The notes under the pieces: generated by a model
Database searches by the model: none
Seen by the model: only the letters and a program-made list of their open reading frames with translations
What the model was told of the DNA's origin: nothing
Position numbers and translations under genes: made by a program
From: Nannocystis pusilla
GTDB lineage: Bacteria; Myxococcota_A; Polyangia; Nannocystales; Nannocystaceae
Reading direction: 5' to 3' (one strand)
NCBI RefSeq assembly: GCF_051105105.1
Contig: NZ_CP185339.1
Length of the DNA: 64,000 bases
In this document: one piece after another, positions 2,689-50,803 of the stretch
How the letters are laid out: each line of letters begins with the position of its first letter
Numbering within the stretch: the first letter of the stretch is position 1

Positions 2689-3504
2689 TCAGCGGCCGGC
2701 CGGCAGCGCCGGGCGGCGCAGGCGGCGGTAGAGGTTGATCCACGGGCGCACCATCACCCGCTGGAACGACAGCCGGGTGTGCAGCCACGAGATCTTGACG
2801 TTGTCGCCGAACACGCGGAAGTGCGACACCCCGCCCTCGTCGCGGCCGATGTAGCGGACCTTGGTGGGCAGGTTTATCACCGGCACCCCGGCCCACACCA
2901 GGCGGACCGCGATCTCGATGTCGAAGTCCATGCGGTCGCCGGTGCGCCCGAGCGCCAGCGCGGGCGCCAGCGGGTACACGCGGAAGCCGCACATCGGGTC
3001 GGTGATGACCCCGCGCCCGGCCTCGAAGTCGGTCCAGAACAGCGTGATCTTGCGGGCGATGAGCCGGCCCTTGGGCGCCGACGCGTCGTACACCGGCGCC
3101 CCGAGGATCAGCGCGTCCGGCCGCTCGCGCGCGGTGGCGAGGAATTGCGGGATGTCCTTCAGGTCATGTTGCCCGTCGGCGTCGACCTGCAGCGCGTGGG
3201 TGTAGCCGAGCTCGTGGGCGAACTGGAACCCGGTCTTGACCGCCGCCCCCTTGCCGCCGTTGTGCGGCCGTCGCCGCACGTGCGCCAGCCCCTCCGCTCC
3301 GATCGCCTCGACCGCGGCCCGGCCCTCCGGCCCCGAGCCGTCGTCGATGACCACCACGTCGGGCAGGTGCGCCTTGACCCGCAGCACCACGTCCCGCACC
3401 GTCCGCGGGTTGTCGAAGGTCGGGATCAGCGCGCACGGCCGGAACGCCGCGGCCTCGGCTTCACCTGTCCCTCGGGACATGTCCTGCCCCCCGTCCGCGC
3501 TCAT
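2689..3504 (-). CDS. family 2 glycosyltransferase (polyprenol-phosphate/dolichol-P-mannose synthase-like)
   Basis: 'VVIDDGSGPEG', 'LQVDADGQHD', 'FRVYP' GT2 hallmarks. The ORF extends to 3579, but that N-terminal extension is encoded by palindromic repeat copies. Start chosen at the Met ~3504; 3477 is an alternative. Confidence 0.7.
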   Translation of the reverse strand: MSADGGQDMSRGTGEAEAAAFRPCALIPTFDNPRTVRDVVLRVKAHLPDVVVIDDGSGPEGRAAVEAIGAEGLAHVRRRPHNGGKGAAVKTGFQFAHELGYTHALQVDADGQHDLKDIPQFLATARERPDALILGAPVYDASAPKGRLIARKITLFWTDFEAGRGVITDPMCGFRVYPLAPALALGRTGDRMDFDIEIAVRLVWAGVPVINLPTKVRYIGRDEGGVSHFRVFGDNVKISWLHTRLSFQRVMVRPWINLYRRLRRPALPAGR

Positions 3505-3599
3505 GTCCGCCTCCCGACGCGGGGCGCGCCCCGCCCGCCGACGGTCGGCTGACGACCTGTCCTCCCGGACATCTGGCAACGACCTGCCCCTTCGGCCAT
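3462..3599. repeat. three palindromic-element copies between the GT2 gene and the ligase stop, partly forming the GT2 N-terminal extension
   Basis: CACCTGTCCCTCGGGACATGTCC (3462-3484), GACCTGTCCTCCCGGACATCTGG (3554-3576), GACCTGCCCCTTCGGCCAT (3581-3599). Confidence 0.7.
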
Positions 3600-3609
3600 A
3601 CGCACCGCC

Positions 3610-5535
3610 TCAGCCTCCGCGCGCCTCGTACTCGAGCGCCCCCGCCGTGACCACCTCGCCGGCCCGCACCAGCGAGAAGCGGACCTGAGCCCCGCGGACC
3701 TCGAGCCGCAGCACCAGCGCGTCCCCCGGCGCGATCGGCCTCGTGAACTTCAGCCGCGCCGCCCGCCGCAGCGGCCCCAGCTCCGGCCGCAGCGCCGCGA
3801 CCTGCGGCACCACCAGCGCGGTCAGCTGCGCCACCCCCGGCAGCACCGGCAGCGCGTCGAAGTGCCCGCGGAAGAACGCCAGGTCGACCGGCACCCCCAC
3901 CTCGACCTCGTGCACCGCCGCGCCGCCCTCGTCGCGCCGCGTCTGCCCGCCCAGCGCGAACGCCGACGCCCCCGGCCCCGCTGTCCCCGCAGACCCGCCT
4001 CGCGAGCCATCCGGCGACGACTCCTGGGCCTCTGTCCCCGCGGACATGTCCCTCGGGCCACCTCGTCCCGGACCCGAGCTCGCTGCGTCGGCCTCTGTCC
4101 CCGCGGACATGTCTCTCGCGCCACCCGCCGCGCCCTCGTCCGCCCCGCCCTCGCCCGCGAGCCCGAGCAGCGCGTGCAGCTTGCGCCGCGTCAGCTTGCC
4201 GCTCGGCTCGCGCGGCAGCGCCGGCACCACCTTGATCCGCCGCGGCACCACCACCTGGTCGAACCACGGGAGCAGCGCCCGCCGCAGCTCGGCCACCAGC
4301 TCGCCGGCGTCGCGCCCGGCCTCGCGGGCGACCACGGCGGCCACCAGCTCGTGCCCGCGGGCGCCCGGCGACTCGACCGCCACCACCGCGGCGTCGGCCA
4401 CCGCCGGCAGCGCCAGCAGCCGCTGCTCGACCTCGGCCACCGCCACCCGCTTGCCGGCGATCTTCACCACCCCGTCGAGCCGTCCGCGCAGGTGGAACCC
4501 GCCGCGCGCGTCGACCTCGACGCGGTCCTCGCACGGGTACGGCACCGGCGCGTCGGGGGCCAGGAACGGCGAGCGCAGCAGCAGCCGGCCCTCCGCCGCC
4601 ACCTCGACCGTCACTCCCGGCAGCGGCGTCCAGGCTGGCTCCGGAGACATGTCCCTTAAAACATCCTCGTGCCGCCGCCAGCCGATCCCGCCGGTCTCCG
4701 ACGAGCCGTACACCTCGGTCACCTGCAGGCCCAGCTTCGTCAGCAGCTCGTCCGCGGTCGCCCGCGGCAGCGGCGCGCCCGACGAGAACACCCGCGACAG
4801 CGGCGGCAAGTCGCCGCGCGTCAGCACCGTCAGCCCGCGCAGGTGCGCCGGCGTGCTGACCAGCACCGTCGCCCCGACCTGCCGCGCCGCCCGGGCCACC
4901 GTCTCGGCGTGCAGCGGCGTCTCGCGGGCGAACGCCGCCCCCGCGGCCAGCGGCGCCAGGATCCCGAACAGCAGCCCGTAGAGGTGGTACGGCGGCACCG
5001 TCGCCAGCGCCACCTCCCCGGCCCGCAGGGCGAACGTGGCCGCCAGCGCCTGCGCCTCGCCGAGCAGCTGCGCGGCCGTCTTGGCGCACGGCTGATGGTC
5101 GCCGGTGCTGCCCGAGGTGTACACGACCGCCAGCCGGCGATCGGCCGCCAGCGCTTCGGGCCATGTCGGATCGGCCATGTCCCCCGAAACATGTCCTTCC
5201 AACCACTCGCGGACGTCCTGCGCGTCGGCCAGGTCGGAGTCGTGCAGCAGCGCGACCACCGACGGCCGCCCGGCCAGCTCGCGCACCGCCGCCGGCTGGG
5301 CGTTGGGCGGCAGCGCGACCGCGTGGCCGCGCAGCCACGCCGCCAGGGTCGTCACCGCCAGGTGGTAGCGGTCGCCGCACACCACCAGCACCTCGCTGCC
5401 CGGCCCCGGCGCCGGCAGGCGCGCCGCGACGGCCCTCGCGTCGCGCATGAGCTCGCCGGCCGTGCGCGCGCCGGCCTCGCCGACGGCGACGAGCGCCACG
5501 GGATCGGTGTGGACGAGCGGGACGAACGAATTCAT
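3610..5535 (-). CDS. AMP-dependent synthetase/ligase (acyl/aryl-CoA or aryl-ACP ligase) fused to a C-terminal FabA/FabZ-like hot-dog (thioester dehydratase) domain
   Basis: Start 'MNSFVPL' at 5535 overlaps the upstream stop (ATGA). The adenylation core shows 'VVYTSGSTG', 'YGSSETGG', 'GKRVAVAEVE' and 'PSGKLTRRKL'. The C-terminal ~130 aa ('FFRGHFDALPVLPGV') look hot-dog-like. The inter-domain linker holds two tandem in-frame repeat-derived insertions ('RDMSAGTEA' twice). Confidence 0.85.
   Translation of the reverse strand: MNSFVPLVHTDPVALVAVGEAGARTAGELMRDARAVAARLPAPGPGSEVLVVCGDRYHLAVTTLAAWLRGHAVALPPNAQPAAVRELAGRPSVVALLHDSDLADAQDVREWLEGHVSGDMADPTWPEALAADRRLAVVYTSGSTGDHQPCAKTAAQLLGEAQALAATFALRAGEVALATVPPYHLYGLLFGILAPLAAGAAFARETPLHAETVARAARQVGATVLVSTPAHLRGLTVLTRGDLPPLSRVFSSGAPLPRATADELLTKLGLQVTEVYGSSETGGIGWRRHEDVLRDMSPEPAWTPLPGVTVEVAAEGRLLLRSPFLAPDAPVPYPCEDRVEVDARGGFHLRGRLDGVVKIAGKRVAVAEVEQRLLALPAVADAAVVAVESPGARGHELVAAVVAREAGRDAGELVAELRRALLPWFDQVVVPRRIKVVPALPREPSGKLTRRKLHALLGLAGEGGADEGAAGGARDMSAGTEADAASSGPGRGGPRDMSAGTEAQESSPDGSRGGSAGTAGPGASAFALGGQTRRDEGGAAVHEVEVGVPVDLAFFRGHFDALPVLPGVAQLTALVVPQVAALRPELGPLRRAARLKFTRPIAPGDALVLRLEVRGAQVRFSLVRAGEVVTAGALEYEARGG
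4030..4116. repeat. tandem ~60-bp duplication containing CTGTCCCCGCGGACATGTC palindromes inside the ligase/hot-dog linker (in frame)
   Basis: Copies at 4030-4057 and 4093-4116, each translated as 'PRDMSAGTEA'. A half-copy lies at 3981-3996. Confidence 0.7.
4643..4668. repeat. palindromic element (GGAGACATGTCCCTTAAAACATCC) in frame inside the ligase adenylation domain
   Basis: Encodes 'DVLRDMSPE' and includes the rare TTA codon. Confidence 0.55.
5161..5198. repeat. palindromic elements (CCATGTCGGATCGGCCATGTCCCCCGAAACATGTCC) in frame near the ligase N-terminus
   Basis: Encodes 'EGHVSGDMADPTWP'. Confidence 0.55.
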
Positions 5536-9386: not shown

Positions 9387-9407
9387 GCCGCGGGCTCGCG
9401 GGCCGCA

Positions 9408-9453
9408 GGGACATGTCCTCTCGGACATATCCTTGCGCACATGTCCTTGCAGA
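9408..9453. repeat. triple GGACATGTCC-type element cluster 22 nt after the stop of the 7607..9386 gene
   Basis: GGGACATGTCCTCTCGGACATATCCTTGCGCACATGTCCTTGCAGAC. Hairpin/terminator-like position. Confidence 0.65.
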
Positions 9454-9712
9454 CACGCGAGGTCAACGTCCGCCCCCACCGGGACGCGCGACGCGGGTCC
9501 GTGCGCGCAGGCGCGCCTCGCGGCGCGAGCGGCAGGATCGCCTCGCGGTGCGCCGGCTCGACCGAGTCCGCGTGGCCGCGCCCGCTCGCCATCCTGGAGC
9601 AGATCCGTGTGGTCCCCGCCACAACACCCCGGGGCCCGCGCGTCCTCGCGCATCGCTCCCGATCGACGCCAGCGCCTGCAGGCCAGGCGTTCCGCCACGT
9701 TCTCGGCCGTCG

Positions 9713-9766
9713 TGTCAAGCTAGCTTGACACCGCTCCCGTGTCGCGTACCTTTGACATCATGTCAA
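9713..9766. promoter_or_regulatory. two palindromic operator-like sites sharing TTGACA half-sites upstream of/overlapping the start of the membrane protein-XRE operon
   Basis: Perfect 18-bp palindrome TGTCAAGCTAGCTTGACA (9713-9730) and TTGACATCATGTCAA (9752-9766), immediately 5' of the gene at 9739 whose downstream partner is an XRE-family HTH regulator. Confidence 0.45.
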
Positions 9767-10215: not shown

Positions 10216-10443
10216 GTGGAGCCCGCGCGCGGCAGCGTGAAGAACCGGATCCGCCAGCTCCGCTTCGAGCACGGCGAGATGACGCAGCAGGAGCTGGCCG
10301 AGCGGATCGGCGTCAGTCGCCAGACCGTCAACGCGATCGAGGGCGGCAAGTACGCCCCGTCGCTCGAGGTCGCCTTCCGGATCGCCCTCGTCTTCGCCGT
10401 CCCGCTCGAGGCCGTGTTTCAGTTCGACCCCGACGCGAAGTGA
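10216..10443 (+). CDS. XRE-family helix-turn-helix transcriptional regulator
   Basis: 'MTQQELAERIGVSRQTVNAIEGGKYAPSLEVAFRIALVF' is a classic Cro/C1 HTH. GTG start right after the membrane protein stop. Confidence 0.75.
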   Translation: MEPARGSVKNRIRQLRFEHGEMTQQELAERIGVSRQTVNAIEGGKYAPSLEVAFRIALVFAVPLEAVFQFDPDAK

Positions 10444-10445: not shown

Positions 10446-10575
10446 GCCACGCACCTGTCCCTTCAGACAGTCTTCTCGTGGCGCCGAGATCGTCACCCCG
10501 AACGGCCCGTCGCACGCACCTGTCCCTTCGGACAGTCTTCACTGCACCGCGATCGTCACCTCGAACGGCCCGCTC
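10446..10575. repeat. ~65-bp tandem duplication containing the palindromic element CACCTGTCCCTTC(A/G)GACAG and a copy of the 3' end of the convergent GspC-like gene
   Basis: Unit 1 at 10450-10513 and unit 2 at 10514-10575 are ~85% identical. Unit 2 overlaps the real stop of the minus-strand gene. Confidence 0.6.
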
Positions 10576-11518: not shown

Positions 11519-11649
11519 GGACAGGCTGTTCACGACGCGTCCTCGCCCGACCGCGGAGCGATCGAACCGTCGCTGGGCGCGGCTCGCCGGCTCGGCACCG
11601 ACCGCCTACGGCCGCTCGCTCATGACCACAAAGACATGTTCCGAAGCAC

Positions 11650-12141
11650 ATGTCCTATACGCCATATCACCGCCGTGACAACGCCCCCGCTGCGTGCCAG
11701 ACTCGCCGCGTGCTCAAGCCCGTCGTCATCAGCGAAGCCGAGCTCGACCGCCGCCACGGCACCTTCGCCCGCCTCGCCTCGGGCGGCCGCTACGGCTGCG
11801 CCTGCGCCGTCTACGACGGCAACGTCACCGTCGAGGGCGACGCCTGGCTCGGCGACGAGCACTGGTCGCAGCTGCAGCTCGCCGCCGCCCCCGACGACAT
11901 CGGCACCATCGTCGTCACCGGCAGCCTCACGGTTCGCGGCGACCTCTGCGTGTCCGACCGCTTGATGTGCGCCGTCGTCCTCGGCGACCTCGTCGCCCGC
12001 GAGCTCGCCATCTTCGAGACCGAGTTCTACGTCGGCGGCGACCTGCGGGTCGAACGCCTGCGCGACCGCGACGAGTACCTCACCGTCGCCGGCGCGCGCT
12101 CGATCGCCGAGCCCGCCGTCGATCCCGACGACGACGAGTGA
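11650..12141 (+). CDS. hypothetical protein
   Basis: 163-aa ORF with coding-like composition; no family recognised. A palindromic element overlaps its 5' end. Confidence 0.4.
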   Translation: MSYTPYHRRDNAPAACQTRRVLKPVVISEAELDRRHGTFARLASGGRYGCACAVYDGNVTVEGDAWLGDEHWSQLQLAAAPDDIGTIVVTGSLTVRGDLCVSDRLMCAVVLGDLVARELAIFETEFYVGGDLRVERLRDRDEYLTVAGARSIAEPAVDPDDDE

Positions 12142-12151
12142 CCTGGCCCGA

Positions 12152-12203
12152 GTGACATGCCCCCGAGGACATGTCACAAACAACCTGCCCCGAAGGACAG
12201 GCG
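12152..12203. repeat. two palindromic elements between convergent genes (terminator-like)
   Basis: GTGACATGCCCCCGAGGACATGTCAC (perfect 8-bp arms, 12152-12177) and CAACCTGCCCCGAAGGACAGGCG (12183-12203). Confidence 0.65.
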
Positions 12204-17903: not shown

Positions 17904-18669
17904 ATGGGTTCGTTGCGAGACAAGGTCGCGCTGATCGTCGGCGGCAATTCGGGCATCGGCAAGGCGACGGCCTTCGCCTTCGCCGACGCCGGGGCCAGGG
18001 TCGTGGTCGCCGCGCGTCGGCGGGCCGAGGGGCAGGGCGTCGTCGAGCAGCTGCGCGCCCGCGGGACCCCGGCGATCTTCGTCCCCCTCGAACGTCACCG
18101 TCGAGGACGACATCATCGCCGGCGTCGCCGCCACCGTCGCCGAGTTCGGCCGCCTCGACTGCGCCGTCAACTCCGCCGGCATCTGCGAGGACTTCGGCCC
18201 GGTCACCAACGTCGACGGCGCCGCCTTCGATCGCATGATGGCCGTCAACGTCCGCGGCACCCTCCTCGGCATGAAGCACCAGCTGAAGCAGATGGTCGCG
18301 CAGGGCGGCGGCGGCAGCATCGTCAACGTCGCCTCGATCCTCTCCCACGTCGGCACCCCCACCGGTTCGGCCTACGTCGCCACCAAGCACGCCGTCCTCG
18401 GCATCACCCGCTCGGCCGCCCTCGGCCACGCCAAGCAGGGCATCCGCGTCAACTGCGTCGCCCCCACCGCCATCACCGGCACGCCCATGGTCGACAACGC
18501 CCTGGCGAACTTCCCCGCCGTCATGGAGCCCGTCATCTCCGCCATCCCGATGGGCCGCCCCGGCCGCGCCGACGAGGTCGGCCGCACCATCGCCTGGCTC
18601 AGCAGCGACGACGCCGCCTTCATCTCCGGCCACTCGCTGGCGATCGACGGCGCCCAGCTCGCCATGTGA
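17904..18669 (+). CDS. short-chain dehydrogenase/reductase, frameshifted at a C5 run near 18085
   Basis: 'VALIVGGNSGIGKATA' Rossmann motif, then after a +1 shift 'NSAGI', 'YVATKHAV' (YxxxK), 'PTAITGTPM'. N- and C-parts are in different frames. Confidence 0.75.
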
Positions 18670-18692
18670 GCGCCGCGCCTCGTCTGCCCCGT

Positions 18693-20733: not shown

Positions 20734-20745
20734 CGTCGACACAGC

Positions 20746-37126: not shown

Positions 37127-37906
37127 ATGTCCCTCACGTTCCCGCGTCCTCACGCCTCGCTCTCGCGCCTGCTCCTCTCCGCCTCGCGCCTCGGCCCCGC
37201 GCTGCTGCTGAGCACCGCCGTGTTCGCCCCGCTGGCCTGCGACGACGCGACAGCCGCTCGCGACGACGCGTCCGCGATCGCCCTGCGCGACGGCGGCGGT
37301 TGTCCGTGCGACGGCGGCACCGATCACCTCGGCAACCCTGTGGACACCGACGTCTGCGGCTATCAGGTCTGCGGCGAAGACTTCCAGTACTACGTCTGCG
37401 GCCAGGGCGGCTGGGTCGCCCAGGGCGGCGTCTGCGGCGGCGACGACGGCTGTCACTGCCCCGGCGGCAAGGACTACCTCGGCAACACCGTGAACGCCAC
37501 CGACTGCGGCCATCAGGTCTGCGGCGAGGACTTCCATTACTACGTCTGCGGGCAAAACGGCTGGGTCTCCCAGGGCGGCGTCTGCGGCGACGGCGACGAC
37601 GACGGCGACGAATGCGACTGCCCCGACGGCACCGACAATTTCGGCAACACCGTCCATGCGACCACCTGCGGCGAGCAGATCTGCGGCGAAAACTTCGAGT
37701 ACTACGCCTGCGAGCCGAACGGCTGGGTCGCCAAGGGCGGCGTCTGCGGCGGCGACGACGGCTGCGACTGCCCCGGCGGCAAGGACCACCTCGGCAACAC
37801 CGTGCACGCGACCGAATGCGGCCATCAGGTCTGCGGCGAGAACTTCCAGTACTACGTCTGCGGCCAGGACGGCTGGGTCGCCCAGGGCGGCCCCTGCAGC
37901 GGCTAG
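37127..37906 (+). CDS. secreted protein built from four tandem ~48-aa cysteine-rich repeats (unrecognised domain)
   Basis: Lipobox/signal 'LLLSTAVFAPLAC'. Four repeats of C.CPGG.D.LGNTV.AT.CG.QVCGE.F.YYVCGQ.GWV.QGGVCGGDDG spanning 37305-37905. AGGA ribosome-binding site 9 nt upstream. Confidence 0.7.
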   Translation: MSLTFPRPHASLSRLLLSASRLGPALLLSTAVFAPLACDDATAARDDASAIALRDGGGCPCDGGTDHLGNPVDTDVCGYQVCGEDFQYYVCGQGGWVAQGGVCGGDDGCHCPGGKDYLGNTVNATDCGHQVCGEDFHYYVCGQNGWVSQGGVCGDGDDDGDECDCPDGTDNFGNTVHATTCGEQICGENFEYYACEPNGWVAKGGVCGGDDGCDCPGGKDHLGNTVHATECGHQVCGENFQYYVCGQDGWVAQGGPCSG

Positions 37907-38742: not shown

Positions 38743-41700
38743 ATGCCCGAAACCGCCGTCGCGCCCAAGCGCCAGCCCTCGCCTCACGACCTGCCTTGCC
38801 CGCTGCCGCCCGTGGCTCCTGGAGAGCCGCCCGAGCTCGGGGCATTTCGCGCCAAGCCCAGCGACGACGCCTTCTTGAAGCTGCGCCGGGCCTTCCGCGA
38901 GGCCGAGAATTGGAGCGCCCTCGCCACCTTGCTCGTCGTGCACGCTGCGGCGATCAGCGGCCCGCCGAAGGTCGCCGAGCTGTGCGTCCAGGCCTACGAG
39001 CTCTGGTACGACCGCGTCAAGGACAAGTCCCAGGCCGCCTACGCCCTCGTGCGCGCCCTCCAGGCCGAGCCGCACAACAGCCGCGCCTTCGAGCAGCTGC
39101 GCAAGGTCTACGGCGAGCTCGGCAGCCTCGACGAGCTCGCCACCCTGCTCAAGTTCCGCCTCGATCACCTGCGGCGGCACGATCGGGGGGCGGTCCCCGG
39201 CGCGCTCGTCGAGCTCGGCAAGGTCGACGAGCAGCGCTGTCAGGTCGACGAGGCCATCGCTTGCTACAGGGCCGCGCTCGAGATCAACCCGCAGGAGCGC
39301 GACGCCAGCGATCAGCTCATCCGCCTCCATCTCCAGGCCGGCGCCTGGCTGCGCGTCATCGATCTGATCAACGCCGAGCTCGCGCGCACCGACAACGTCC
39401 GCGAGCGCGACCGCTTCGCCGCCCTCCACCTCCGCCTCGCGCGGATCGAGGCCGAGCAGCTCGAGAACATCCCCTCCGCCGCGCTCCACCTGCAGGCCGC
39501 GCTCAAGGCCAACCCTGACGACGTCGCCGCCCTGCGGGCCTTCGGCGCCCTCTACCTCGGCAGCGGCAAGGCCAGCGACGAGGGCCTGCAAAAGGCCGCC
39601 GACGTGTTCTTCCGCGCCGCCAAGCTGGCGCGCAGCCAGGGCGACGACAAGATCGCCTACAGCCTGCTGCGCCGGGCCATGAGCCTGCGCCCCGACCATC
39701 ACGAGGCCGGCAACGCCCTGGCCGAGCTGTTGATGGCGCAAGAGAAGTGGATGGAGCTCGACGACCTCTACGGGGCGTGGATCGGCTACGTCACCGAGGC
39801 CGACAGCTACGGCCTGTGGCTGTCGCGCGGCGAGCTGCTCGAGACCCGCCTCGCCCGCCGCGAGGAGGCCCGCGCCTGCTACGAGCAGGCCTCGCGGCTC
39901 GAGCGGCCCGGCGGCGACGCCTGGCTGCGCCTCGAGGCCCTGCTCGTCGAGCTCGGCGACAACCACGGCCTCGTCAGCCTGTACGAGCGCTGGTCCGAGC
40001 AGGACCCCGGCGGTCTGCCGACCGACAAGCTGCTGTGGGCCGCCCGCGTCGCCCGCGAGGACCTCGGCGACGAGGAGCGGGCCGCCGTCAGCTTCTACCG
40101 CGTGCTCGAGCGCGAGCCCTTCGACCACGAGGCCTTCGAGGGCTACAAGGAGCACTGGCGGCGCAAGAACAACTGGTCGCACCTGGCCGGCCTCATCCTC
40201 TACCAGGTCGACCAGGCGCTGCAGATGGGCGGCGGCCCGGACAGCCCGCTGGCCCGCTCCGAGTTCGCCGAGCACTTCGTCGAGCTGGCCGAGATCTACG
40301 AGCGCCGCCTCGGCGACCTCGCCGGGGCCCTCGACGCCTGGAACCGGCTCGCCCTCGCCTACCCCAACGACTGGCGCCCGCGCGACCAGATCGCCCGCAT
40401 CGACAAGCGCGCGCGCATGCTCGACGCCAACCTCGCCACCCTCGAGGCCGAGCTGCAGCGCACCGTCGATCCGCAGCGCCGCTTCGAGGTGCTGCGCCGG
40501 CTGTCGCAGGCCCACCGCGAGCGCATGACCGACCCGCAGCGCACCATCGTCCTGCTGCAGGAGATGCTGGCGCTCGCGCCCGGCCACGAGGGGGCCCTGC
40601 GCGCGCTCGCCGAGATGTACGAACGAACAGGCGCTTACGACCAGGTCATCGACCTGCTGCGGCGCCAGCACGACGTCACCCGCAGCATCTCGCAGCGCGT
40701 CGTCCTGCTGCGGCGCATGGCCGAGCTGTGGCAGCACGAGCTGCACAGCCCGCGCGAGGCGCTGTGGGCCTGCGAGCAGATCCTCGGCTACAGCCCGTCC
40801 GACATGGACGCCGTCCACCGCATGCAGGGCCTGTGCGCCGAGGCTCGGCGACGCCGGCGGCGAGTACGAGGCGCTGTCGCGCGAGCTCGGCCTCGTCGGC
40901 GACCCGGCGCAGCGCACCCGCATCATCCGGCGCATGGCCGACGTCGCCGACCGCAAGCTGCAGGACCCGCAGCGCTCGGCCCAGGCGTGGACGCAGCTGC
41001 AGGCCGGCGACCCGCACAACCTCGAGGTCACCGACAAGCTCATCGCCGCCTACGAGGCGCTCGGCAACCGCGAGGAGCTCGCCAACCTGCTCGGCAAGGC
41101 CGCCAGCTCGGCCCGCACCCCGCCGATCCGCCAGCTCGACTACCTCATGCGCCTGGGCCACGTCGCCGAGTCCTCGCTCGGCGACGCCGACCTGGCCTGC
41201 TCGGCCTTCGAGCGCGCGCTGCGGATCCACCGCGACCACCGCGGCGCCACCGAGGCGCTGACCCGCCTCTACCGCAACCTCGGCAGCTGGCACGGCCTGG
41301 CCGCCTCGCTCGGCACCCTGCAGGAGATGGCCGACAGCGACGAGGAGGCGCTCGGCATCGGCTGGGAGCGCGCCGAGGTCCTCGCCGACAGGCTCGACAA
41401 CCCGGCCGCCGCCATCCGCGTGCTCGAGCAGCTCAGCTCGAACGCCGCCGTCGGCAACCGCGACGTCGCCCTCAAGCTGCTCGAGCTGTACGAGCGGGCC
41501 GGTCAGTTCGACCGCCTGATCCGCCACGCCGAGATCCTCCTGCTCTCGGCGCTCGAGACCGACGAGCGCCGCGAGCTGTTCTCGCTGATCGCCCGCACCT
41601 ACGTCGTCAGCCTCAACGCCCCGCACAAGGCCATCGCCGCCTTCCAGCGGTTCATGCGCGAGGAGCCCGACGACGGCGAGGGCCTCAAGATCCTCGGCGA

Positions 41701-44700
41701 GCTGCAGGCCCTGGCCGGCGATCATCAGGCCACCCTCGACACGCTCGGCAAGCGCCTCGAGAGCCTCACCGACGCCGCCCAGCAGGTCGTCACCCTCGAG
41801 CAGATGGCCGAGGTGTGCGAGTTCGGGCTCGGTCACGCCAAGCGGGCGCTCGCGCTGCTCGGGCGGGCCCTCGGCATCGCCCCCGGCAGCCGCGACCTCA
41901 AGCAGAAGATCGAGGCGTTCGCCGAGCGCCACGGCATGTACAAGGACCTGCTCGTCGTCTACGGCGAGCGCTTCACCGAGATGAGCGGCCGCGCCGAGAG
42001 CCGCGGCCAGATCGACCTGTGCCTCGGCGCCTCGGCCACCGCCGAGAAGAAGATCGGCGACCCCGACCTCGCCTTCGCCTGGGCGCGCAAGGCCTACTTC
42101 GTGGCCCTGCGCGCCGGCCTCGACGCCGGCCCGGTCCAGAGTCGCCTCGAGGGCCTGGCCCAGGCCCACGGCCTGTGGCCGCAGATGCTCGACGTAAGCG
42201 AGCAGGAGCTGGCCTTCCAGGAGAAGACCCCCAACTACGGCGACTACGGCACCATCGCCCTGCTGATGTCGGCCGCCGAGATCGCCCGCGAGCGCCTCGG
42301 CGACCCCGCGCGCGCGATCGGCTACCTGCAGCGCGCCTACAAGCTGCGCCCCGACGACGACGACCTCGGGCGCCAGATCGAGGCCCTCGGCGAGGCCCAC
42401 CAGATGTGGCAGGCGCTGATCGACCTGCAGGAGCTCAGGCTCGGCCGCGCCAAGACCGGCCTCGGCCGCTTCGACGCCTGCGTCGCCATCGCCAAGGTCT
42501 ACGAGCGCCACCTCAGCGACCCCAGGCGCGCCTTCCAGTGGCTGCGCCGGGCCGAGACCGACCTGCGCCCGGCCGATCCGTCGCTGGCCGAGGAGGCCGC
42601 CGGCCTGATGACCGAGCTGGCCCAGCGCCACCAGCTCTGGCCCGAGCTCGCCGACCACCACCGCGGCCTCGCCCTCGCCAAGCTGCAACGCAACGAGCGC
42701 GGCGGCCTCAATCAGCTCAAGGACTCGGCGCGCATCGACTACGAGAAGCGCCAGGACCCGCTCGCGGCCCTGCGCACCCTCCGGCTCGGCGTCGCCTACG
42801 ACCGCGACGGCACCGCGCTGATGCCCGCGATCGAGGCGATGGCCGCCAAGGTCGACGAGAAGCGCAGCCCCGACACCCCGCCGACCGGCGCGCTCACCCT
42901 GCTGTCCGTCACCCAGCAGATCATCGGCCAGACCGTCGACCCCGCGCTCAAGCTGTCGCTGCTCAAGCGCCGCGCCGAGCTGCGCGCCGGCCTCGGCGAC
43001 ACCGCCGGCGCCATCGCCGAGTGGCTGCGCGCCCTCTCGCTCCACCCCGGCAGCGAGGAGGCCCGGTTCGAGCTCGACCGCCTGGCCGAGCGCGACAACC
43101 TGTGGCACCTGCTCCTCCTCGCGCCCGCCAGCGAGCTGGCCTTCGGGACAGGCAAGGCCCAGCAGGGCAAGCTCCTGACCCAGATCGCCGAGCTCTACGA
43201 GAACTGCCTCGGCCGGCCCGAGTACGCGCTCAGGGCCCGGATCGCCGCCTGGAAGCTGCAGGGCGACCTGCCCCCCGAGACAGGTGAGCCTCGGGCCCGT
43301 CCACAGCAAGATGTGGCACCTCGCCGGCCTGACCGGCACCTACACCGCCCCGCCGCCGGCCCGCGACCCGCTGCTGTGGCCGCAGATCGTCCCGCCCGAG
43401 CTGGCCGACCGCGACCAGTGGCGCAAGCTCGGCCTCGACCCCGACACGCTGGCCCCGCGCATGCCCGTCAAGCCGCGCGCCAAGAAAGAGGAGTCGAGCG
43501 TGATGGAGCTCGACGACCTCGAGGAGGTGTCGCGCCCGACCGCCGAGATCGAGCTGTCCGAGCCTCGAGCCGCTCGAGGAGCTGCGGCGCGGCGGCGGCA
43601 AGGAGGTCGTCGCCCGCCCGGGCAAGACGGTCCGCAGCGAGACGCACACCAACATCGTCGACCTCGCCGACCTCGAGCCCGTCGAGCTGTCGGCCACCGC
43701 GGTCAAGATCCGCGCCCCGCGGCCGGCCCGCGGCGAGACCGACATCGTCGACATCGCCGAGCTCGAGCCCGTCGAGGCGTCCGGCTCCGTCAGCGTGCGC
43801 GCGGCCGGACTGCCGCGCCAGGAGTCCGGCGTGTTCGACCTCGCCGACCTCGAGCCGATCGAGGACAGCCTGGTCGGCCCGGCGCCGAGGCGCCCGAGCG
43901 CCGAGGTCTCCGGCGTGCTCGACCTCGACGAGATGCTCGAGCTCGACGACGACGCCCCGCGCCCGGTGTCGCACAAGCGCTCGCTGCCGCGGCCGGCCGC
44001 CAAGCCGCGGGGGCCGACCCCGCCGCGCCCGCCGGGCGGCAAGCCGGTCGCCAAGGCCCCGCCGCCGGCCCGCCGCCCCGCCGCCCCGCCGCCGCCCTCG
44101 CGCCCGCCCGAGCCTGTCCCCGCGGCCAGCTTGCCGCCGCCGCCCCCGGTCGCCAGCCGCGAGCTGATCGACGCCGTCACCGCCGGCCTGCCGGCCTTGC
44201 CCGAGCTCGACGCCCCGGTCCTGCCCGGCCGCCCGTCCGCCAGCTCCGCCTGGCACGAGCTGGCCCACGCCTACGCCTCGGTGGTCCCCGCCAGCAAGTC
44301 CGAGCGCGCCGGCCTGCAGCGCCTGCTCGCCCGCCTGTGGGACGAGGGCGCCGGCATGCCCGAGGCCGCTCTCGAGCGCTACGAGGAGGCCCTCGCGCTG
44401 GTGCCCGACGACGCGGTCGCCCTCTCGGGCCTCGTCCACATGTCCGAAAGGACAGCCGACCCCGAGCGCCTGATCGCCGCGCTGTCGCGCCTGCTGTCCG
44501 ACCTCACCCTGCCCGAGCACATCGTCGCCTATCACCTGCGCCTCGCTAACCTGTACGAACAGACAGGTCAGCCCGAGCGCGCCGAGGAGCAGTACCGCGG
44601 CGTGCTCGCCGTCTCGCCGAAGCACCTCGGCGCGCTGCGCAGCCTGGCCGCGCTGCACGCCAAGACCGGCCGCGAGCGCGAGGCCGCCGAGGCCTCGGCG

Positions 44701-47700
44701 CGCCTCTACGACGTTGAGGCCGACGGCCTCCCGCTGGACGAGCGGATCCCCCGCGTCCTGCAGCTCGCGCGCGACCTCGCCTACCGCGCCGACCGCTCGC
44801 TCGAGGCCATCCGCCGCCTCGAGGCGCTGGTCAAGGAGACCCCCGAGACCGCCGACGTCCACGCCGAGCTGATCGAGATCCTCCAGCGCGAGGGCCTGTG
44901 GGTCCGCGCCGTCGAGGCCCTGCGCGCCGCCGCCGAGGTCGTGCCCAACCCCGACGCGCGCGTGCGCTGCCTGGCTCGCGCCGCCACCCTCACCGAGGAG
45001 CGCCTCGGCCAGCCGGAGGCCGCGATCGCCGGCTGGTCCGAGGTCCTCGACCACAACCCCGGCGACCCCGACGCTTCGGTGCGCCTGCAGAGCCTCTACC
45101 TGCGCACCGAGCAGTACGCGAAGCTGCTGCCGATCCTCGACCGCCGCCTGGCCCAGGTCGCGCCCGGCGACCGCGACGCCCGCATCGCCCTCCTCGTCGT
45201 CAAGGCCCGCGCCCTGCAAGAGGGCCAGGGCGACGAGGCCGCCGCCCTCGAGACCCTCGAGACCCTCGCCGCCGAGGCCCCCGAGAACGACGACGTCGTG
45301 CTCGGCCTGTCCCGCCTCTACCGCAAGGGCGGGCGCATGGACGACGGCGTCGAGATGCTGCGCCGGCGCCTGGCCGAGATCGTCAGCGACATGGAGGTCC
45401 GCAGCGAGCCGCTCGACGAGGAGCCGCTGCCGTTCGACATCCCCGAGCCGGTCTCGCCGGCGCTGGCGGCCCGCCGCGTGCGCATCGCCGAGGCCCTGGC
45501 GACCGCCCTGGCCGAAGAAGCAGGTGACCCCCGCGGCGCGCTCGAGACCCTCGACGAGGCCCTCGCCGCCGCCCCGCCCGACGCCGCGCTCGGCCTGCAG
45601 CAGCGCCGCGTCGCCCTCGCGCGGACCCTGGGCGACGACCGGGCCCTCACCGTCAGCCTCGCCGCCGTCGGCGAGCCCGACGGCATCCTCGAGGCCGCCG
45701 CGATCGCCCGCGACCGCCTTCACGAGCCCGAGCTGGCCGCCCAGCTGTTCACCCGCGTCCTCGCCGAGCTGGCCCCGGGCGCCCCGCAGCGCAGCCGCCG
45801 GCTGTCGCAGGCGATCGAGGGCCTGGTCGGCCTGCGCCTGGCCGCCGGCGACCTCGACGGCGCCGACGCCCTGCTCGACGCCCAGCTGGCCCAGATCGAC
45901 GACCCCGAGATCCGGGCCCGGATCCTCACCGAGAGCGGCCGCGCCCTGCTGCGCGGCGGCCAGGAGCTCGCGCGCGCCCGCCAGCGCTTCGAGGCCGCCC
46001 TCGCCGCCGACCCCGACTACGCGCCCGCGCGCCTGGCCCTCGGCGCGGCCCTCATCGACGCCGGCCTCCACGCCGAGGCCGAGGCCATCCTCGAGGCCGC
46101 GGTCGAGGCGTTCGGCCTCACCCGCGACCAGCCGCGCCTGGTCGAGGGCCTCTTGATGCTGGCGCACCTGTTCGAACAGACCGACCGCGCCAACGAGGCC
46201 TACCGCCGCCTCTCGATGGCCCTGCGCCACGTCCCCGACGACCTCGAGATCCGCGCCGCCATGGCCCACAACCGCGCCGCCGCCGGCCGCCACCGCGACG
46301 CCGTCGCCGCCCTCGAGCCGGTCGAGCAGCGCCTCGCCGCCGGCACCCCGGTCCCGCCCGAGCGCGCTTCCGTGGTCGCCGACCTGCTGATCCTCGCCGC
46401 CGAGTGCGACGCCAAGCAGAACGCCCCCGCCGAGCGCCTCGCCGCCCGCTACGCCCGCGCCCTCGAGCTGGCCCCGCGCCACCGCAAGGCCCGCGCGGCG
46501 CTGGCCCAGCTGGCCCAAGAGTCGGGTAGATTGGTGGATGCGGCCGAGCACACCTTGGCCCTCGCCGACCTCGAGCAGGACCCCGAGGCCCGCGGCCGGG
46601 CCCTGCTCGCCGCCGGCATGCTGTTCCACGAGGCCGCCGGCGCCGCGGCCGAGACCGGCGAGGAGACCGTCGTCAGCGCCTCCGCGCAGAAGATCCTCGG
46701 CGCCGCCTTCGACGCCGTCCAGGCCGGCCTCGCCCTGATCCAGCACATCCCGCACCCGGTCCTCGACCGCCGCCAGCTCGAGGCCGCTTTCTGGACCGCC
46801 GTCTCGCGCAACGCCGGCATCGCCCTCGGCTGCCTCGACCGCCTGCTGCACCACCCCGACCTGCGCGACGCCAAGCGGGCCGGCTTCCTGCTCGAGGGCG
46901 TCAAGATCGCCCTCCAGCGCGGCGAACCCGGCGACCCCGAGCGCGCGCTCGGCTACGCCCGCGCCGCCGTCGAGCTGCGGCCCGACGCCGCCGCCCCGAT
47001 CCACGGCCTCGTCGACGCCCTGCGGGCCTGTGGCGCCGCCCGCGAGATCGAGCCGGCGGTGCGCGCCTACCTGGCGCGCGACAGCGTCCAGAAGCCGCCT
47101 GGTGACCTGAGCGAGGCCCGCGACCGCCAGCGCCTGCTGGTCCGCCTGGCCGACCTCGTGGTCCAGGCCGAGCCCCCACCTGACCCGAAGGACAGCCGAC
47201 CCGCGCAGGCGATCCGGCTGCTCGAGCGGGCCGCCGAGCTCGACCCGACCGGCCTCGGCCTGGCCCCGCGGCGCCAGCTCGCCAGGCTCTACGCCGACGA
47301 GAAGATCCAGGGCCCGCAGGTGCGCAGCAACTCCGACGCCCTGCTCCACCTCGACCCGCTCGACGAGGCCAGCCTGGCCGCGCTCGCCCGTCACTGCGCC
47401 GAGAACGGCGAGGAGGGCCGCGCCCACGCCATCCACCAGCTGCTGCGGATCGTCAGCCCCGGCCACGCCGAGGCCGGCGCCTTCCTCACCAGCCACGAGC
47501 TGCTGTCGGTGCGCAGCGGCAAGCTCGACCCCACCAGCGTCATCGACCCGGCCCCCGCCGACGCCGGCGTCGTCCCGGCCCTCACCGCCCTGTGGGAGGG
47601 CGCCGCCGAGCTGCTCGCGGAGGAGCTGCCGCGCCCGCAGTTCAGCGAGGCCGCCTGGATCGAGGCCGAGACCGACAAGGACACCCTCCTGTGGAAGGTC

Positions 47701-48366
47701 TGGACCGAGCTCGGCACGCAGATGCCGGCCCAGAGCGTGCGCCTCGCCGACGTCGAGCTGCTCCCCGACATGCGCGTCGAGGGCGGCTGGACCAGCGTCT
47801 CGTGCGTGCACCCGCCGGTGATCCTCGTCGGCCCGGCCGCCCGCGCCGAGACCACCGCCCCGCGGCTGCGCTTCGCCCTCGGGCGCGCGCTGTTCTTCAC
47901 CCGCCCCGCCGCGATCCTCGTCGCCGGCCTGCCGAAGCCGCTGTTCGCCGGCGTCCTCGCGGCCGCGCTCCAGGCGTTCCACCCGCGCCACACCCGGCGG
48001 GTGCGCGCCCGCGACGAGGCCGACCTGGCCACGCGGCTCGGCCAGACCCTCGCGCGCAAGCTGCCGATCCGGCTGGCCCGCCAGCTCAGCACCGGCTTCA
48101 AGGAGCGCGAGCAGGAGGGCTTCGACAGCCGCGACTGGCGCGCGTGGGTCCAGCGCTCCGGCGACCGCGTCGGCCTGTGCCTGTCGCGCAACCTCGGCGC
48201 CGCCCTCGACATCCTCGGCCTGCCCCAAGAGCCAGGCGAACGCAGCGCCGCCCTCAAGGCCCGCGCGGCCTCCGACGCCGACCTGCGCGACCTCCTGGTG
48301 TTCGCGGTCAGCCCCGCCTACGTCGCGGCCCGCCGCGCCCTCGGCTTCGAGGTCAAGTCCCGCTGA
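38743..48366 (+). CDS. giant (~3200 aa) helical-repeat (TPR-like) protein, read through at least three frameshifts (~40845, ~43285, ~43560)
   Basis: Contiguous ORF segments 38743..~40860, 40934..~43290, 43284..~43560 and 43795..48366, all with Ala/Leu-rich repeat character. A central acidic region has short repeats 'VDLADLEPVE'/'VDIAELEPVE'/'FDLADLEPIE'. The TPR assignment is by eye, with no HMM run. Confidence 0.5.
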
Positions 48367-48574: not shown

Positions 48575-49787
48575 ATGCCCACCGCGCCGCGTCTCCGGAT
48601 CTCGCTGCAACTGAGCGTCACGGCCCTGGCCCTGCAGGCCTGCCTCGACCCCAACGCCAACACCGAGACCGAGTCGACCGCCAGCACCGGCCCCGGCACC
48701 ACCACCAGCGTCGACACCACCGGCGTCTCCGCGACCGACCCGACCACCGGCGAGCCGACCACGAGCGAGCCCGGCACCACCGCCGGGGCCGTGTGCGGCG
48801 ACGGCTTCGTCGACGCCGACGAGCAGTGCGACCTCGGCCCCGACAACGCCGACGACGGCGCCTGCACCAGCGACTGCCGCAACGCCATGTGCGGCGACGG
48901 CCTCGTCAACAAGGACGCCGAGGAGTGCGACCTCGGCCCCGACAACGCCGACGACGGCGCCTGCACCACCGCCTGCCTCCTCCCCAGGTGCGGTGACGGC
49001 GTCCTCAACGGCGGCGAGGTCTGCGACGACGGCATGAACGACGGCACCTACGGCAGCTGCCTCGCCGACTGCAGCGCCGCCGCCCCCGGCTGCGGCGACG
49101 GCCAGGTCGATCCCGACAACGAGGACTGCGAGGACGGCCCCGACTGCCTGCCCACCTGCAAGTACGCCCGCAGCTGCCTCGAGTGGCAGGAGGCCGCTCC
49201 CGAGGCCGTCAGCGGCGTCTTCAGCGTCCGCCGCGAAGGCATCATGGACCCGATCGACGTTCTGGTGCGCCCTCGATCCCGCCGTCGACGGCGGCGGCTA
49301 CACCTTCCTCAAGGTCGACGTCGCCGGCGGCATGAACCAGAGCCCGGCCACCGCCGCCATCGCCGAGGCCGCCTGCGCCGACTGGGGCATGCAGCTGTTC
49401 ATCCCGCGCAGCGCGGCGCACCTCGGCGTCGCCTACGAGGTCGCCACCGGCGACAACCTCGAGCCGGTCGGCGGCGGCACGGTGAAGAGCGGCGCCGATT
49501 ACCTGCAGATCCTGGGGATCTATCCGGTCACCGCGGGCGAGAGCTGCGTCGACGCGCCGCTCAACGGGCTCGACTGTCCCGAGTGGCGCGCCGGCGACGA
49601 CCAGGCGTGGTTCGTCAGCGACGTCGCCGTCGGCAGCGGCGAGCCCGACGAGCTCGGGGCATGCGAGGGCTGCTCGATGCTCTACCAGTGGAACCAGGAC
49701 GGCAGCGTGAAGAGCTACAAGGCCCTGCCCCAGCCGGGCGGCTACAGCTTCCGCTTCCTGTGCGACACGGGCGATAAATTGCCCTGA
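48575..49787 (+). CDS. lipoprotein with Myxococcus-type cysteine-rich repeats (CGDG...ECD.G..N.DDGAC) and a C-terminal globular domain, frameshifted near 49255
   Basis: Lipobox 'LALQAC' and a Thr-rich linker. Three 'CGDG(F/L)V...E.CDLGPDNADDGACT..C' repeats. The C-terminal domain continues in the frame of ORF 49332..49787. Confidence 0.55.
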
Positions 49788-49819
49788 CGCGCGCGGCGGG
49801 TTTATGTCATTTTTTCGCC

Positions 49820-50686
49820 ATGGCTCGCTTACCTCGCAAAATCGCGCTCCTGGCCCTCCTGGGGCTCGCGTCGGCCTGCATCATCGGCGGCGGCAACACC
49901 ACGAACACCTCCGACTCCGACACCGGCGAGTTCGTGTGCGACGACCCCAACTCGTACCTCGAAGGCGAGACCTGCTACTGCAACGACGGCTTCGAGTACT
50001 GCACCGACGACCCGAACGACCTGTCCTGCTGTCCGGTCGAGGACACCACCACGGTCTCGAGCGTCGGCACCACCACCGTCGAGCCGACCTCGACCAGCGA
50101 GCCGACCACCACCACCGGCCCGAGCACCGAGTCGACCACGCTGCCGGAGACCAGCTCGACCACGACCACCACCGAGGCGACCGCGAGCACCGCCGAGACC
50201 ACTGACACCAGCGAGGGCACCACCACCGGCGGCGTCGAGTGTCAGGGCGAGCAGCCGCCGCCCGAGCGCTGCCAGAACGGCCAGTTCTGGTGCACGATGA
50301 CCGAGGCCTGCGGCCCCGAGGGCAGCCAGGTCTACCGCTGCGACGGCGCCACCTGGGTGTTAGAGCCCAACCTCGCCAAGGACAGCTGCAGCTTCGACGG
50401 CTACGACTTCGCCTACGGCTGCGTCGACACCGGCAAGACCGTCGAGTTCATCTGCGGCGACGGCCCCGGCACCCCCTGCGAGAACAGCGACCCCGCCAGC
50501 TGCGAGGACGACACCAACCTCAACACCTGCATCTACGGCAAGCTGTCGCAGTTCGACTGCTTCGTCCAGTGCACCGAGGTCGGCGACGCCATGATGACCC
50601 TGTACGACCACGGCTTCTGCGGCGACGACATGGGCACCTCCGTCTGCCTCTGCTGCGACATGGGCGAGCCCGGCTGCCCCGTCTGA
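49820..50686 (+). CDS. cysteine-rich lipoprotein with a Thr-rich linker (hypothetical)
   Basis: Lipobox 'LGLASAC'. Poly-Thr/Ser/Glu linker and ~20 Cys in two globular parts. Confidence 0.55.
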   Translation: MARLPRKIALLALLGLASACIIGGGNTTNTSDSDTGEFVCDDPNSYLEGETCYCNDGFEYCTDDPNDLSCCPVEDTTTVSSVGTTTVEPTSTSEPTTTTGPSTESTTLPETSSTTTTTEATASTAETTDTSEGTTTGGVECQGEQPPPERCQNGQFWCTMTEACGPEGSQVYRCDGATWVLEPNLAKDSCSFDGYDFAYGCVDTGKTVEFICGDGPGTPCENSDPASCEDDTNLNTCIYGKLSQFDCFVQCTEVGDAMMTLYDHGFCGDDMGTSVCLCCDMGEPGCPV

Positions 50687-50803
50687 CCTGCCCCAAGGGC
50701 CAGGTCCGCCCGCGCGAAAGTCTGCGCGGGCAGGACTTGTCCCATCGACCAACGACCGCGTCCGCGTCAACCGCTCCGCGGCCTGCCCCATCGGCCAGGT
50801 CCC
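50684..50803. repeat. cluster of GACCTGCCCC-N4-GGCCAGGTCC-type elements downstream of the lipoprotein gene
   Basis: GACCTGCCCCAAGGGCCAGGTCC (50684-50708), CAGGACTTGTCCCATCGA (50731-50748), GCCTGCCCCATCGGCCAGGTCCC (50781-50803). Confidence 0.6.
50708..50731 (+). terminator. GC-rich hairpin downstream of the lipoprotein gene (possible intrinsic terminator, no U-tract)
   Basis: GCCCGCGCG-AAAGTCT-CGCGCGGGC perfect 9-bp stem, lying between two palindromic-element copies (50684-50708, 50781-50803). Confidence 0.3.

Follow-up and report, generated by a model that had tools for sequence, protein, structure and literature searches.

The stretch of DNA analysed here, the window, comprises 64,000 nucleotides of the Nannocystis pusilla genome (contig NZ_CP185339.1). 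It is 70–77% G+C, with a GC skew that is negative nearly throughout. Among the genes it encodes are a HAL/PAL-type lyase, a GT2 protein, an AMP-ligase/hot-dog fusion, an M16 peptidase, a TetR protein, a PAP2 protein and a giant protein of tetratricopeptide repeats (TPR). Scattered through these genes and the gaps between them are many copies of a short interrupted palindrome – almost certainly a real, lineage-specific repeat family at the level of the DNA, and neither a peptide motif nor the work of chance. A preliminary description of the window had reported such palindromes both between genes and within them. This picture was borne out, with the copies inside genes lying mostly in linkers, loops and N-terminal extensions, and the family is restricted to one lineage. 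The names given there to the fusion, GT2, M16, TetR and PAP2 genes were also confirmed. Two further names are weak, with sub-threshold Pfam matches only: the EF-hand protein (E about 1e-3) and the SUKH-like protein (E about 4e-3). The open reading frame (ORF) of the window that was called a zinc-ribbon protein had no Pfam match.

Listing all TGTCC and GGACA words in the window gave a repeat unit of [A/C]TGTCC-N4-GGACA[G/T], a 16-bp interrupted palindrome. The words CTGTCC-N3-7-GGACAG and GGACAKGTCC occur 6 and 4 times in the window, against 0.07 and 0.17 expected. The looser pattern [AC]TGNCC-N4-GGNCA[GT] has 34 matches with a spacer of 4 nt; every other spacer from 0 to 12 nt has 0–2, and Markov simulations gave 0.5–0.8. 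When mismatches to the consensus were allowed, 13, 23 and 32 sites were found at N4 with 0, 1 and 2 mismatches, compared to 0, 0–1 and 2–8 at control spacings. Because these counts are far above the controls, about 60 of the 68 sites are real copies, or approximately one per kb. The palindrome is thus 40- to 85-fold over-represented, and about 80% of ACCTGTCC words have an inverted partner at exactly 4 nt. The earlier figure of about 40 copies was too low, although the family it described is real. A scan for perfect-stem hairpins of at least 7 bp missed the family, since the arms are 6 bp long and often mismatched. A 12-Mb Nannocystis genome would carry copies on the order of 10,000.

The outer pair of the arms is C-G or A-T, and the two sides agree more often than chance would have it (158 Watson-Crick pairs vs. 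125 expected from the marginals, p = 2e-4). The fourth arm position behaves differently – among 34 copies it is T-A in 13, while T-C, C-A, G-A, C-C, T-T and A-A together account for 21, and a compensatory C-G or G-C was found in none of the 34. The spacer is variable, with a pyrimidine at its first base as the sole preference. An oriented position matrix showed that the unit is flanked on one side by a 5’ AC, often extended to CAC or GAC. In 270 Nannocystis copies, the AC/GT flank was present on exactly one side in 167, on both in 23 and on neither in 80; independence would give, by our own arithmetic, about 129, 42 and 99. As the flank is mostly one-sided, the unit has a direction; with flanks included, the 16-nt palindrome measures 18–22 nt. 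The consensus first proposed, with a loop of 4–7 nt, was therefore corrected to CAC-CTGTCC-YNNS-GGACAG, in which the spacer is always 4 nt and no regular GTG follows on the right. Units of the ATGTCC type also overlap head to tail (GGAC/ATGTCC), forming chains with a 14-nt period. Variants that contain CACCTGC resemble the site of the type IIS enzymes AarI/BspMI, a likeness that was set aside: the main variant, CACCTGTCC, has no such site.

Coding signal in the window was scored with a codon model trained on 85 long ORFs. By this measure, 21 of the 68 window copies are flanked left and right by strong coding signal that stays in one open frame, which bears out the in-frame placement reported earlier. 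The eight copies between 15508 and 16039 are spaced in multiples of three, their starts being 174, 186, 21, 27, 51, 27 and 30 nt apart; another Nannocystis genome (L031) has a similar in-frame array with spacings of 27, 21, 27, 21 and 48 nt. All three phases and both strands of the repeat DNA are used for coding, and the peptides that result are unrelated: [L/M]SxGT in phase 0, PVPxDS or xVLxDM in phase 1, and xCPxGH in phase 2. Phases 0, 1 and 2 are used 12, 8 and 2 times, in an approximate hand tally in which 21 copies were classed as intragenic. From the codons involved, this preference would appear to follow the cost of translation, phase 2 being the costliest because it needs a cysteine plus two rare codons.

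The arms of the palindrome are conserved, and the spacer is not. The copy at 4649 is perfect in two distant Nannocystaceae loci at about 55–60% protein identity (ATGTCC CGGA GGACAT in L124 and CTGTCC CCGG GGACAG in L125). The outer pair has changed on both sides together, and the peptide has gone from HVPEDMS to PVPGDRS to DVLRDMS. This is the opposite of what the preliminary description had named as grounds for dropping the idea – distant relatives with the same peptide and no palindrome. In 40 cleanly aligned copy-by-genome comparisons, divergence was 5.2% in the arms, 9.3% in the flanks and 22.5% in the spacers, which is about 2.4 times the flanks (spacer vs. flank, p = 5e-6). Third codon positions in the same alignments diverged by 4–12%. 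Spacers had no difference in 22 of the comparisons, one in 5 and two or three in 13, while a binomial expectation is 14, 17, 7 and 1.4 for none, one, two and three. Spacer change is thus bimodal, with several bases altered at once. Such jumps are found between strains only about 4% diverged at third positions. At 5177 the window has CCCG where a strain about 96% identical there has CTTA, and at 34608 it has CAGG where L129 has GAAA. The spacer at 3152–3167 reads TTCA, CCCA, CCGA and CCGA in four genomes. No reverse-complement flips of the loop were found among orthologous spacers; the changes are substitutions.

Placement relative to genes was determined with independent gene calls of five Nannocystis loci (104 kb). 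Strict copies numbered 38 in genes (0.46 per kb), 3 in the first 60 nt of genes and 21 between genes (1.33 per kb). With up to one mismatch and background subtracted, the numbers were about 62, 22 and 70. Copies are therefore 3–5 times denser between genes (1.3–4.6 per kb) than inside them (0.46–1.0 per kb), with an intragenic share of about 40–60%. Intergenic density falls from 8.3 per kb in convergent regions to 4.0 in co-directional and 1.6 in divergent ones. This ranking matches the pattern published for repetitive extragenic palindromes (REPs), which favour the gaps of convergent and co-directional ORFs and are rare in those of divergent ORFs (PMC3733652). The intergenic sites first listed in the window (9408–9453, 12152–12203, 18693–18856 and 50684–50803) all proved to hold copies.

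Orientation follows the composition of the strands. The strand that bears the AC tag is the locally C-rich one in 122 of the 167 oriented copies. Forward and reverse copies number 63 and 21 at loci of negative skew, and 25 and 58 at loci of positive skew. On an 11.3-Mb contig of N. exedens, skew and orientation agree over megabase blocks (seven loci only), which is compatible with replichores. Copies agree with the coding strand in 62 of 76 cases where that strand is C-rich, but divide 21:22 where it is G-rich. G-T-type mismatches in the stems also have a strand preference – 74:30 for the G-rich strand, and 30:49 for the sense strand – a result that speaks against selection on pairing in the mRNA, and fits either asymmetric mutation or hairpins on one DNA strand.

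The 6-bp hairpin that perfect copies form has a folding energy between −5 and −5.8 kcal/mol in DNA and between −8.6 and −10.5 kcal/mol in RNA (z about −3). Most copies do not fold so well: 21 of 34 have an uncompensated central mismatch and fold no better than shuffled sequences, and the same is true of copies with degenerate arms. The repeat had no Rfam match at the gathering score, and no T-run follows the copies in the window. The earlier proposal of very stable RNA hairpins with UUCG or GNRA tetraloops is not supported, as the spacer is the most variable part of the unit. The G-T-type mismatches, moreover, follow the G-rich DNA strand and not the mRNA strand.

The taxonomic range was determined with a scan for ACCTGTCC-N4-GGACAG in one genome per species (185,579 species), in which at least 120 loci matched. 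Among the 120 loci listed, about 34 are from Nannocystis or Nannocystaceae, often with several matches each; the other 86 are scattered over the tree and have essentially the seed match alone. The 34 loci hold 143 copies in 269 kb. Orthologous 22-kb loci of N. pusilla Na p29, N. exedens and N. radixulma have 22–24 copies each with up to one mismatch, the more distant Nannocystaceae loci L124 and L125 (55–61% protein identity) have 3 and 5 per 22 kb, and a further myxobacterial locus (L126) has the motif at chance level. The motif is thus concentrated in Nannocystis, thinner in distant Nannocystaceae and absent from the further myxobacterial relative. Viral contigs contained single chance matches only, and no carrier element.

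The alignments show that copies arise both by insertion and by substitution, so the suggestion that the in-frame ones are lineage-specific insertions holds for some genes and fails for others. The fusion of AMP-ligase and hot-dog domains is old and occurs widely. Distant relatives have a short linker in it, and that of N. radixulma is free of the motif; the group made up of N. pusilla, N. exedens, N. punicea and N. bainbridge has 2–4 RDMSAGT double units there, for a range of 0–4 across species. The copy at 4649 is an 18-nt insertion relative to the most distant homologue (L126, which does not have it), and the copy after the HxxEH..MLFK segment of the M16 peptidase lies in a 19-residue insertion relative to solved M16 structures in a Protein Data Bank (PDB) alignment. 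At the AMP-ligase/GT2 junction, N. pusilla has about 85 nt that are missing from N. exedens and N. radixulma (L122, L123), where the genes abut or overlap. In contrast, the copies in the HAL and GT2 genes arose by substitution. The first is CTG GCC GAA GGG ACA GCT, with three rare A/T-ending codons, where distant relatives have CTC GCC GAG GGC CGC GCC at the same length; the second, in the DxDGQHD..DIP motif, causes no change of length in a codon alignment.

No target-site duplications, which had been suggested, were found at the variable sites. Copy number does vary between strains, mostly through tandem expansion of units of 14, 27, 63 and 65–85 nt; no clean single-copy transposition was found between close strains. 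For example, the three-unit chain at 9409–9455 has as its counterpart an array of about 22 14-nt units in N. pusilla Na p29 (L121), which also has four of the 65-nt units present twice at 10448–10572. In the segment 50686–50803, L129 has three or four additional units of 63–85 nt, each with a copy. Copies lie in gapped alignment in 57% of copy-by-species comparisons, compared to 14% for random windows.

We favour, at a probability of roughly 0.45, a REP-like element of the DNA, peculiar to Nannocystis and its family, that a trans-acting protein recognises and processes, because of the one-sided tag, the strand bias, the intergenic placement, the link with insertions and arrays, and the jumps in the spacer. 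Copies would be made and refreshed by a sequence- or structure-specific enzyme that acts on transiently single-stranded DNA at the replication fork, the obvious candidate for this role being a Y1/HUH transposase of the RAYT type. Slippage in replication may contribute, as may short-patch conversion from one copy to another. Inside genes, copies would persist only in loops or linkers tolerant enough to take up a multiple of three bases without harm. A number of observations weigh against such an element. The unit is shorter than any described REP (20–40 nt). The oriented matrix has no GTAG or CGTC tag, and AC, CAC or GAC stands in its place. No inverted doublets (REPINs) were seen – clusters are direct chains (14 nt) or in-frame direct repeats (21, 27 and 63 nt). 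A Y1 transposase domain was found in none of about 100 called genes of five annotated Nannocystis loci, which says little, no Nannocystis-wide protein search having been made. Most copies fold poorly, and at least two, those in HAL and GT2, were made by substitution in conserved codons, which is not what a cut-and-paste or copy-and-paste element does. Orientation also tracks the coding strand (84:35), an effect entangled with that of skew, and local GC skew is a mere proxy for replication direction. Finally, the 40 comparisons behind the spacer divergence are few and share phylogeny, so the size of that effect is uncertain. The family is accordingly described as working like a REP and is not filed as one, since the REP tag and the inverted doublets were not found.

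A serious alternative, if on the whole an unlikely one, is a site in duplex DNA, resembling HIP1 of cyanobacteria, to which a dimeric protein binds, whether an orphan methyltransferase, a nucleoid protein or a factor for uptake or recombination. Selection, or a drive through conversion or uptake, would keep the site abundant. Sites would arise mainly by substitution and small indels where these are cheapest. This explains several things better than the REP-like element does: the strict 4-bp spacer, whose freely varying bases would be those not contacted; half-sites whose central bases vary independently, without a single compensatory pair; the poor hairpins; and the rare codons of the substitution-made HAL and GT2 copies. 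Position is held over deep divergence while the half-site type changes from C..G to A..T, abundance falls in the HIP1 range, and HIP1 sites are likewise conserved within and between ORFs (PMC5861425). However, a site that is symmetric in the duplex fails to account for the one-sided AC tag, the orientation with skew or the strand bias of G-T mismatches. It also leaves unexplained why the spacer outpaces neighbouring non-coding sequence in multi-base jumps, why copies are tied so strongly to insertions, arrays and tandem units, and why they avoid divergent regions as REPs do. Function in RNA, as hairpins that end transcription, shield 3’ ends or, at the junctions of genes and the boundaries of domains, adjust translation, seems improbable. 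Copies are enriched downstream of genes and between convergent genes, those at 2654 and 11650 overlap start codons at cistron junctions, perfect copies are stable as RNA, and arms are kept while loops vary; but there is no preferred tetraloop, most stems have uncompensated mismatches placed on the G-rich strand and not the sense strand, neither a T-run nor an Rfam match was found, and orientation by skew is not something RNA function predicts.

A classical miniature inverted-repeat transposable element (MITE), or one like the Rickettsia palindromic elements (RPEs), inserted by a DDE transposase through terminal inverted repeats with target-site duplications, would account for lineage-specific insertions in linkers and loops and for presence/absence differences between species. 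It is nonetheless very improbable: a unit of 16–22 bp with a 4-nt interior is far below MITE or RPE size, the duplications are missing, strains differ by tandem expansions and not by new dispersed copies, some copies were made by substitution, and viral contigs have chance matches only. Selection on a peptide (DMS or PVPADS), or a compositional accident of high-GC codon usage, is effectively refuted by the independence of phase and strand and by the spacing controls. DMS is indeed kept at the AMP-ligase site in relatives at about 55–60% protein identity, and some TPR matches (LYEQTG) are plain repeat consensus. Yet about half of the copies are non-coding, the peptide at that same site changes while the palindrome stays, the motif forces rare codons, and other spacings and simulations give about 1 match where 34 were observed. 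An outside chance may be given to a more specific proposal, in which a dedicated Nannocystaceae enzyme takes the palindrome as its substrate: it would cut the extruded or single-stranded site inside the 4-nt spacer and rewrite it. Such an enzyme would leave the arms refreshed and the spacers scrambled in multi-base jumps, and by short-patch conversion it would spread the unit to similar sequences, conserved codons included. If it exists, it would constitute an active, genome-wide punctuation system distinct from both RAYT transposition and methylation-linked HIP1. It might even have a replication-polar function, since sites are oriented with GC skew and spaced near the length of Okazaki fragments.

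Among known repeats, the REP/BIME/REPIN-RAYT systems of Proteobacteria are similar in being short imperfect palindromes in very many copies, inherited vertically and specific to lineages. They also share placement downstream of genes, with convergent and co-directional regions favoured over divergent ones, as well as stem mismatches, an asymmetric tag at one end and occasional copies within ORFs (PMC3733652). Unlike them, the Nannocystis unit is 16–22 nt (vs. 20–40), has an AC/CAC tag (vs. GTAG or CGTC) and forms direct 14-nt chains in place of inverted doublets. Its density of about 1 per kb is about 10 times higher, about 40–60% of copies are intragenic, and some were made by substitution. 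HIP1 (GCGATCGC) is a hyper-abundant palindrome of coding and non-coding DNA in cyanobacteria, present about once per kb in all frames, 15- to 300-fold over-represented, conserved beyond the needs of the peptide and probably functional at the DNA level (PMC5861425, PMC4390886). In Nannocystis, over-representation likewise extends to coding and non-coding DNA, and the arms are kept beyond peptide constraint. HIP1 differs in being an uninterrupted 8-mer, tied to orphan methyltransferases and without orientation or arrays, while the Nannocystis motif is built 6+4+6 and tagged on one side only; it also has a strand bias, a hypervariable spacer and strong ties to insertions and tandem expansions.

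The likeness to RPEs drawn in the preliminary description is loose. RPEs are also palindromic and found both between genes and in frame inside working genes, at surface or linker positions. However, they are 100–150 bp long, add 30–50 residues, and number tens to hundreds of copies in a reduced, AT-rich genome, whereas the Nannocystis unit adds 6–11 residues (inserts of 18–63 nt) and is sometimes present with no insertion at all. The DNA uptake sequences (DUS) of Neisseria and uptake signal sequences (USS) of Pasteurellaceae also occur about once per kb, are genus-specific, arise by substitution at tolerant coding positions and often lie as inverted pairs downstream of genes. These are non-palindromic 9- to 12-mers for which inverted pairing is optional, unlike the ACCTGTCC words, about 80% of which are paired at one fixed distance.

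Nannocystis genomes are among the largest and most GC-rich bacterial genomes known. A literature search found no description of palindromic repeats in Nannocystis or other myxobacteria, in agreement with the initial impression. Rickettsia is not the only precedent for short palindromes in frame, as intragenic REPs that encode extra residues are known in Opitutus and Thauera (PMC3733652). Thus intragenic and hyper-abundant palindromes are themselves already known, and to our knowledge it is the combination of traits that is undescribed: placement and asymmetry as in REPs, density and origin by substitution as in HIP1, residence in frame within enzymes as in RPEs, and a spacer that jumps while the arms are held, traits usually seen separately. 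Few features of bacterial genomes are so poorly understood as REPs, HIP1 and other hyper-abundant short palindromes, and Nannocystis provides an independent case in a distant phylum, the Myxococcota. The combination brings the question of selfish element versus selected DNA signal within reach of a test, in an organism that can be cultured and has several complete genomes. There is a practical side as well – copies lengthen N-terminal extensions, join or break up ORFs and give rise to variable linkers, and therefore affect gene calling and the comparative analysis of Nannocystis biosynthetic and regulatory genes. The copies and arrays of the window are collected in Table 1.

Table 1. Copies and arrays of the interrupted palindrome in the window
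Position	Strand	Copy or array	Context
1525–1540	+	CTGTCC CTTC GGCCAG	Within HAL/PAL-type lyase gene (74–1603, minus strand), read LAEGTA; by substitution, no indel
2612–2683	+	Degenerate unit chain	Spans GT2 stop/acyltransferase start junction; putative ATG start within arm (GGCCATGG)
3152–3167	+	ATGTCC TTCA GGTCAT	Inside conserved DxDGQHD..DIP motif of GT2; by substitution
3465–3599	+	3–4 copies (3465, 3479, 3557, 3584)	AMP-ligase/GT2 junction, in ~85 nt particular to N. pusilla
4032–4124	+	Two 34-nt double units (CTGTCC CCGC GGAC/ATGTCC CTCG GGCCAC), 63 nt apart	Linker between AMP-binding_C and hot-dog; RDMSAGTEA twice
4649–4664	+	One copy, VLRDMSPEP	AMP-binding domain; old 18-nt insertion
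5163–5206	+	Three-unit chain (GHVSGDMADPTWP)	Variable loop of AMP-binding domain
9399–9456	+	14-nt-period chain	Downstream of plus-strand gene
10448–10572	+	65-nt tandem unit, twice, each CAC CTGTCC CTTC [A/G]GACAG	Between convergent genes
11622–11665	+	Three-unit chain	ATG of ORF 11650–12141 is the ATG of an ATGTCC arm
12143–12200	+	Three copies	Between convergent 11650–12141 (plus strand) and M16 (minus strand)
12802–12834	+	Two adjacent copies (AGLGDRLSEGPG)	C-terminal half of M16 peptidase; break between two overlapping M16 ORFs here
14661–14682	+	One copy, read PCVLGH	Directly after HxxEH...MLFK of M16
15508–16039	+	Eight copies, codon phase 1, PVPADS-type repeats	Pro-rich stretch of ORF 15318–17186
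18684–18847	+	Four copies	Convergent region between 18235–18669 (plus strand) and S41 peptidase (minus strand)
20361–20376	+	One copy	C-terminal domain of TetR gene (20035–20772, minus strand)
24096–24111	+	CAC CTGACC CGAA GGACAG	Within EF-hand protein gene, LSFGSG
34411–34771	+	5–6 copies, KDMSQGT, GDMSSGT, PVPEDT	Upstream or N-terminal extension of PAP2 gene
43136–47195	+	Copies starting 43136, 43268, 44114, 44440, 47180	Inside giant TPR gene
50688–50798	+	Degenerate copies (CTGCCC ... GGCCAG)	Repeated segment downstream of 49820–50686

The stretch at 2612–2683 is invariant in four Nannocystis species, and the sequence adjoining it is rich in indels. In the giant TPR gene, the copies at 43136, 44114, 44440 and 47180 are kept without indels in L129, and that at 43268 lies in gapped alignment; the sites at 44551 and 40615 are probably nothing more than the TPR consensus. 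Three overlapping plus-strand frames are open across the TPR region at 38743–48366 (38743–43287, 40934–44167 and 43504–48366). Relatives are single proteins of about 2,650 residues, so the gene model in the window is uncertain, with frameshifts or several genes possible. A protein search with the giant TPR ORF returned no orthologues from other species, because the sequence is of low complexity and the gene model uncertain.

The M16 peptidase is one gene of 903 residues in N. exedens and N. radixulma; in locus L122 it lies at 337–3048. In the window (12209–15077, minus strand) it is two overlapping ORFs, and the break between them coincides with the pair of elements at 12802–12834. In N. pusilla Na p29 (L121, 1–2069) the gene is split at another place. 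The split in the window could be a frameshift, a pseudogene or a sequencing error.

In the distant Nannocystaceae locus L124, the 3’ end of the AMP-ligase gene (11830–11866) encodes ...SDMSGGTCV*, and this end is a copy of the family, GGACATGTCTGGAGGTACATGTGTC. Nannocystis has no copy at that place.

The P-type ATPase gene of the window (26570–29140, minus strand) has relatives 81–88% identical in two loci (L127, L128) whose neighbourhoods are otherwise unlike the window, and the next Nannocystis homologues are 69–72% identical. It seems to be a gene that has moved, or else a paralogue. These two loci are not syntenic with the window and contributed no orthologous copies. About 100 nt upstream of the ATPase gene, at 29240–29272, is a perfect palindrome with a 14-bp stem (GCGAGTACGGCGGC CGGCC GCCGCCGTACTCGC). 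This palindrome does not belong to the repeats described above, and may serve as an operator or an attenuator.

Three regions of the window (37312–37903, 48788–49018 and 52326–53289) contain coding tandem repeats of 150 nt and 93–99 nt that encode Cys-rich modules. Modules with CGDG...C motifs are found in several neighbouring, secreted-looking proteins, and homologues in L127 and L129 have weak matches to DUF4215.

Two other palindromes lie at 9712–9766, before a small gene of the Cro/C1-type helix-turn-helix (HTH) class (10216–10443, plus strand): a perfect one of 20 bp (GTGTCAAGCTAGCTTGACAC) and TTGACA-T-C-A-TGTCAA. Both look like operators. At 53881–53909, about 45 nt past the stop codon of the ORF at 51940–53835, a hairpin with an 11-bp stem (AGCCCGCGAGT CCCCAAA ACTCGCGGGCT) is terminator-like and lies outside the family.

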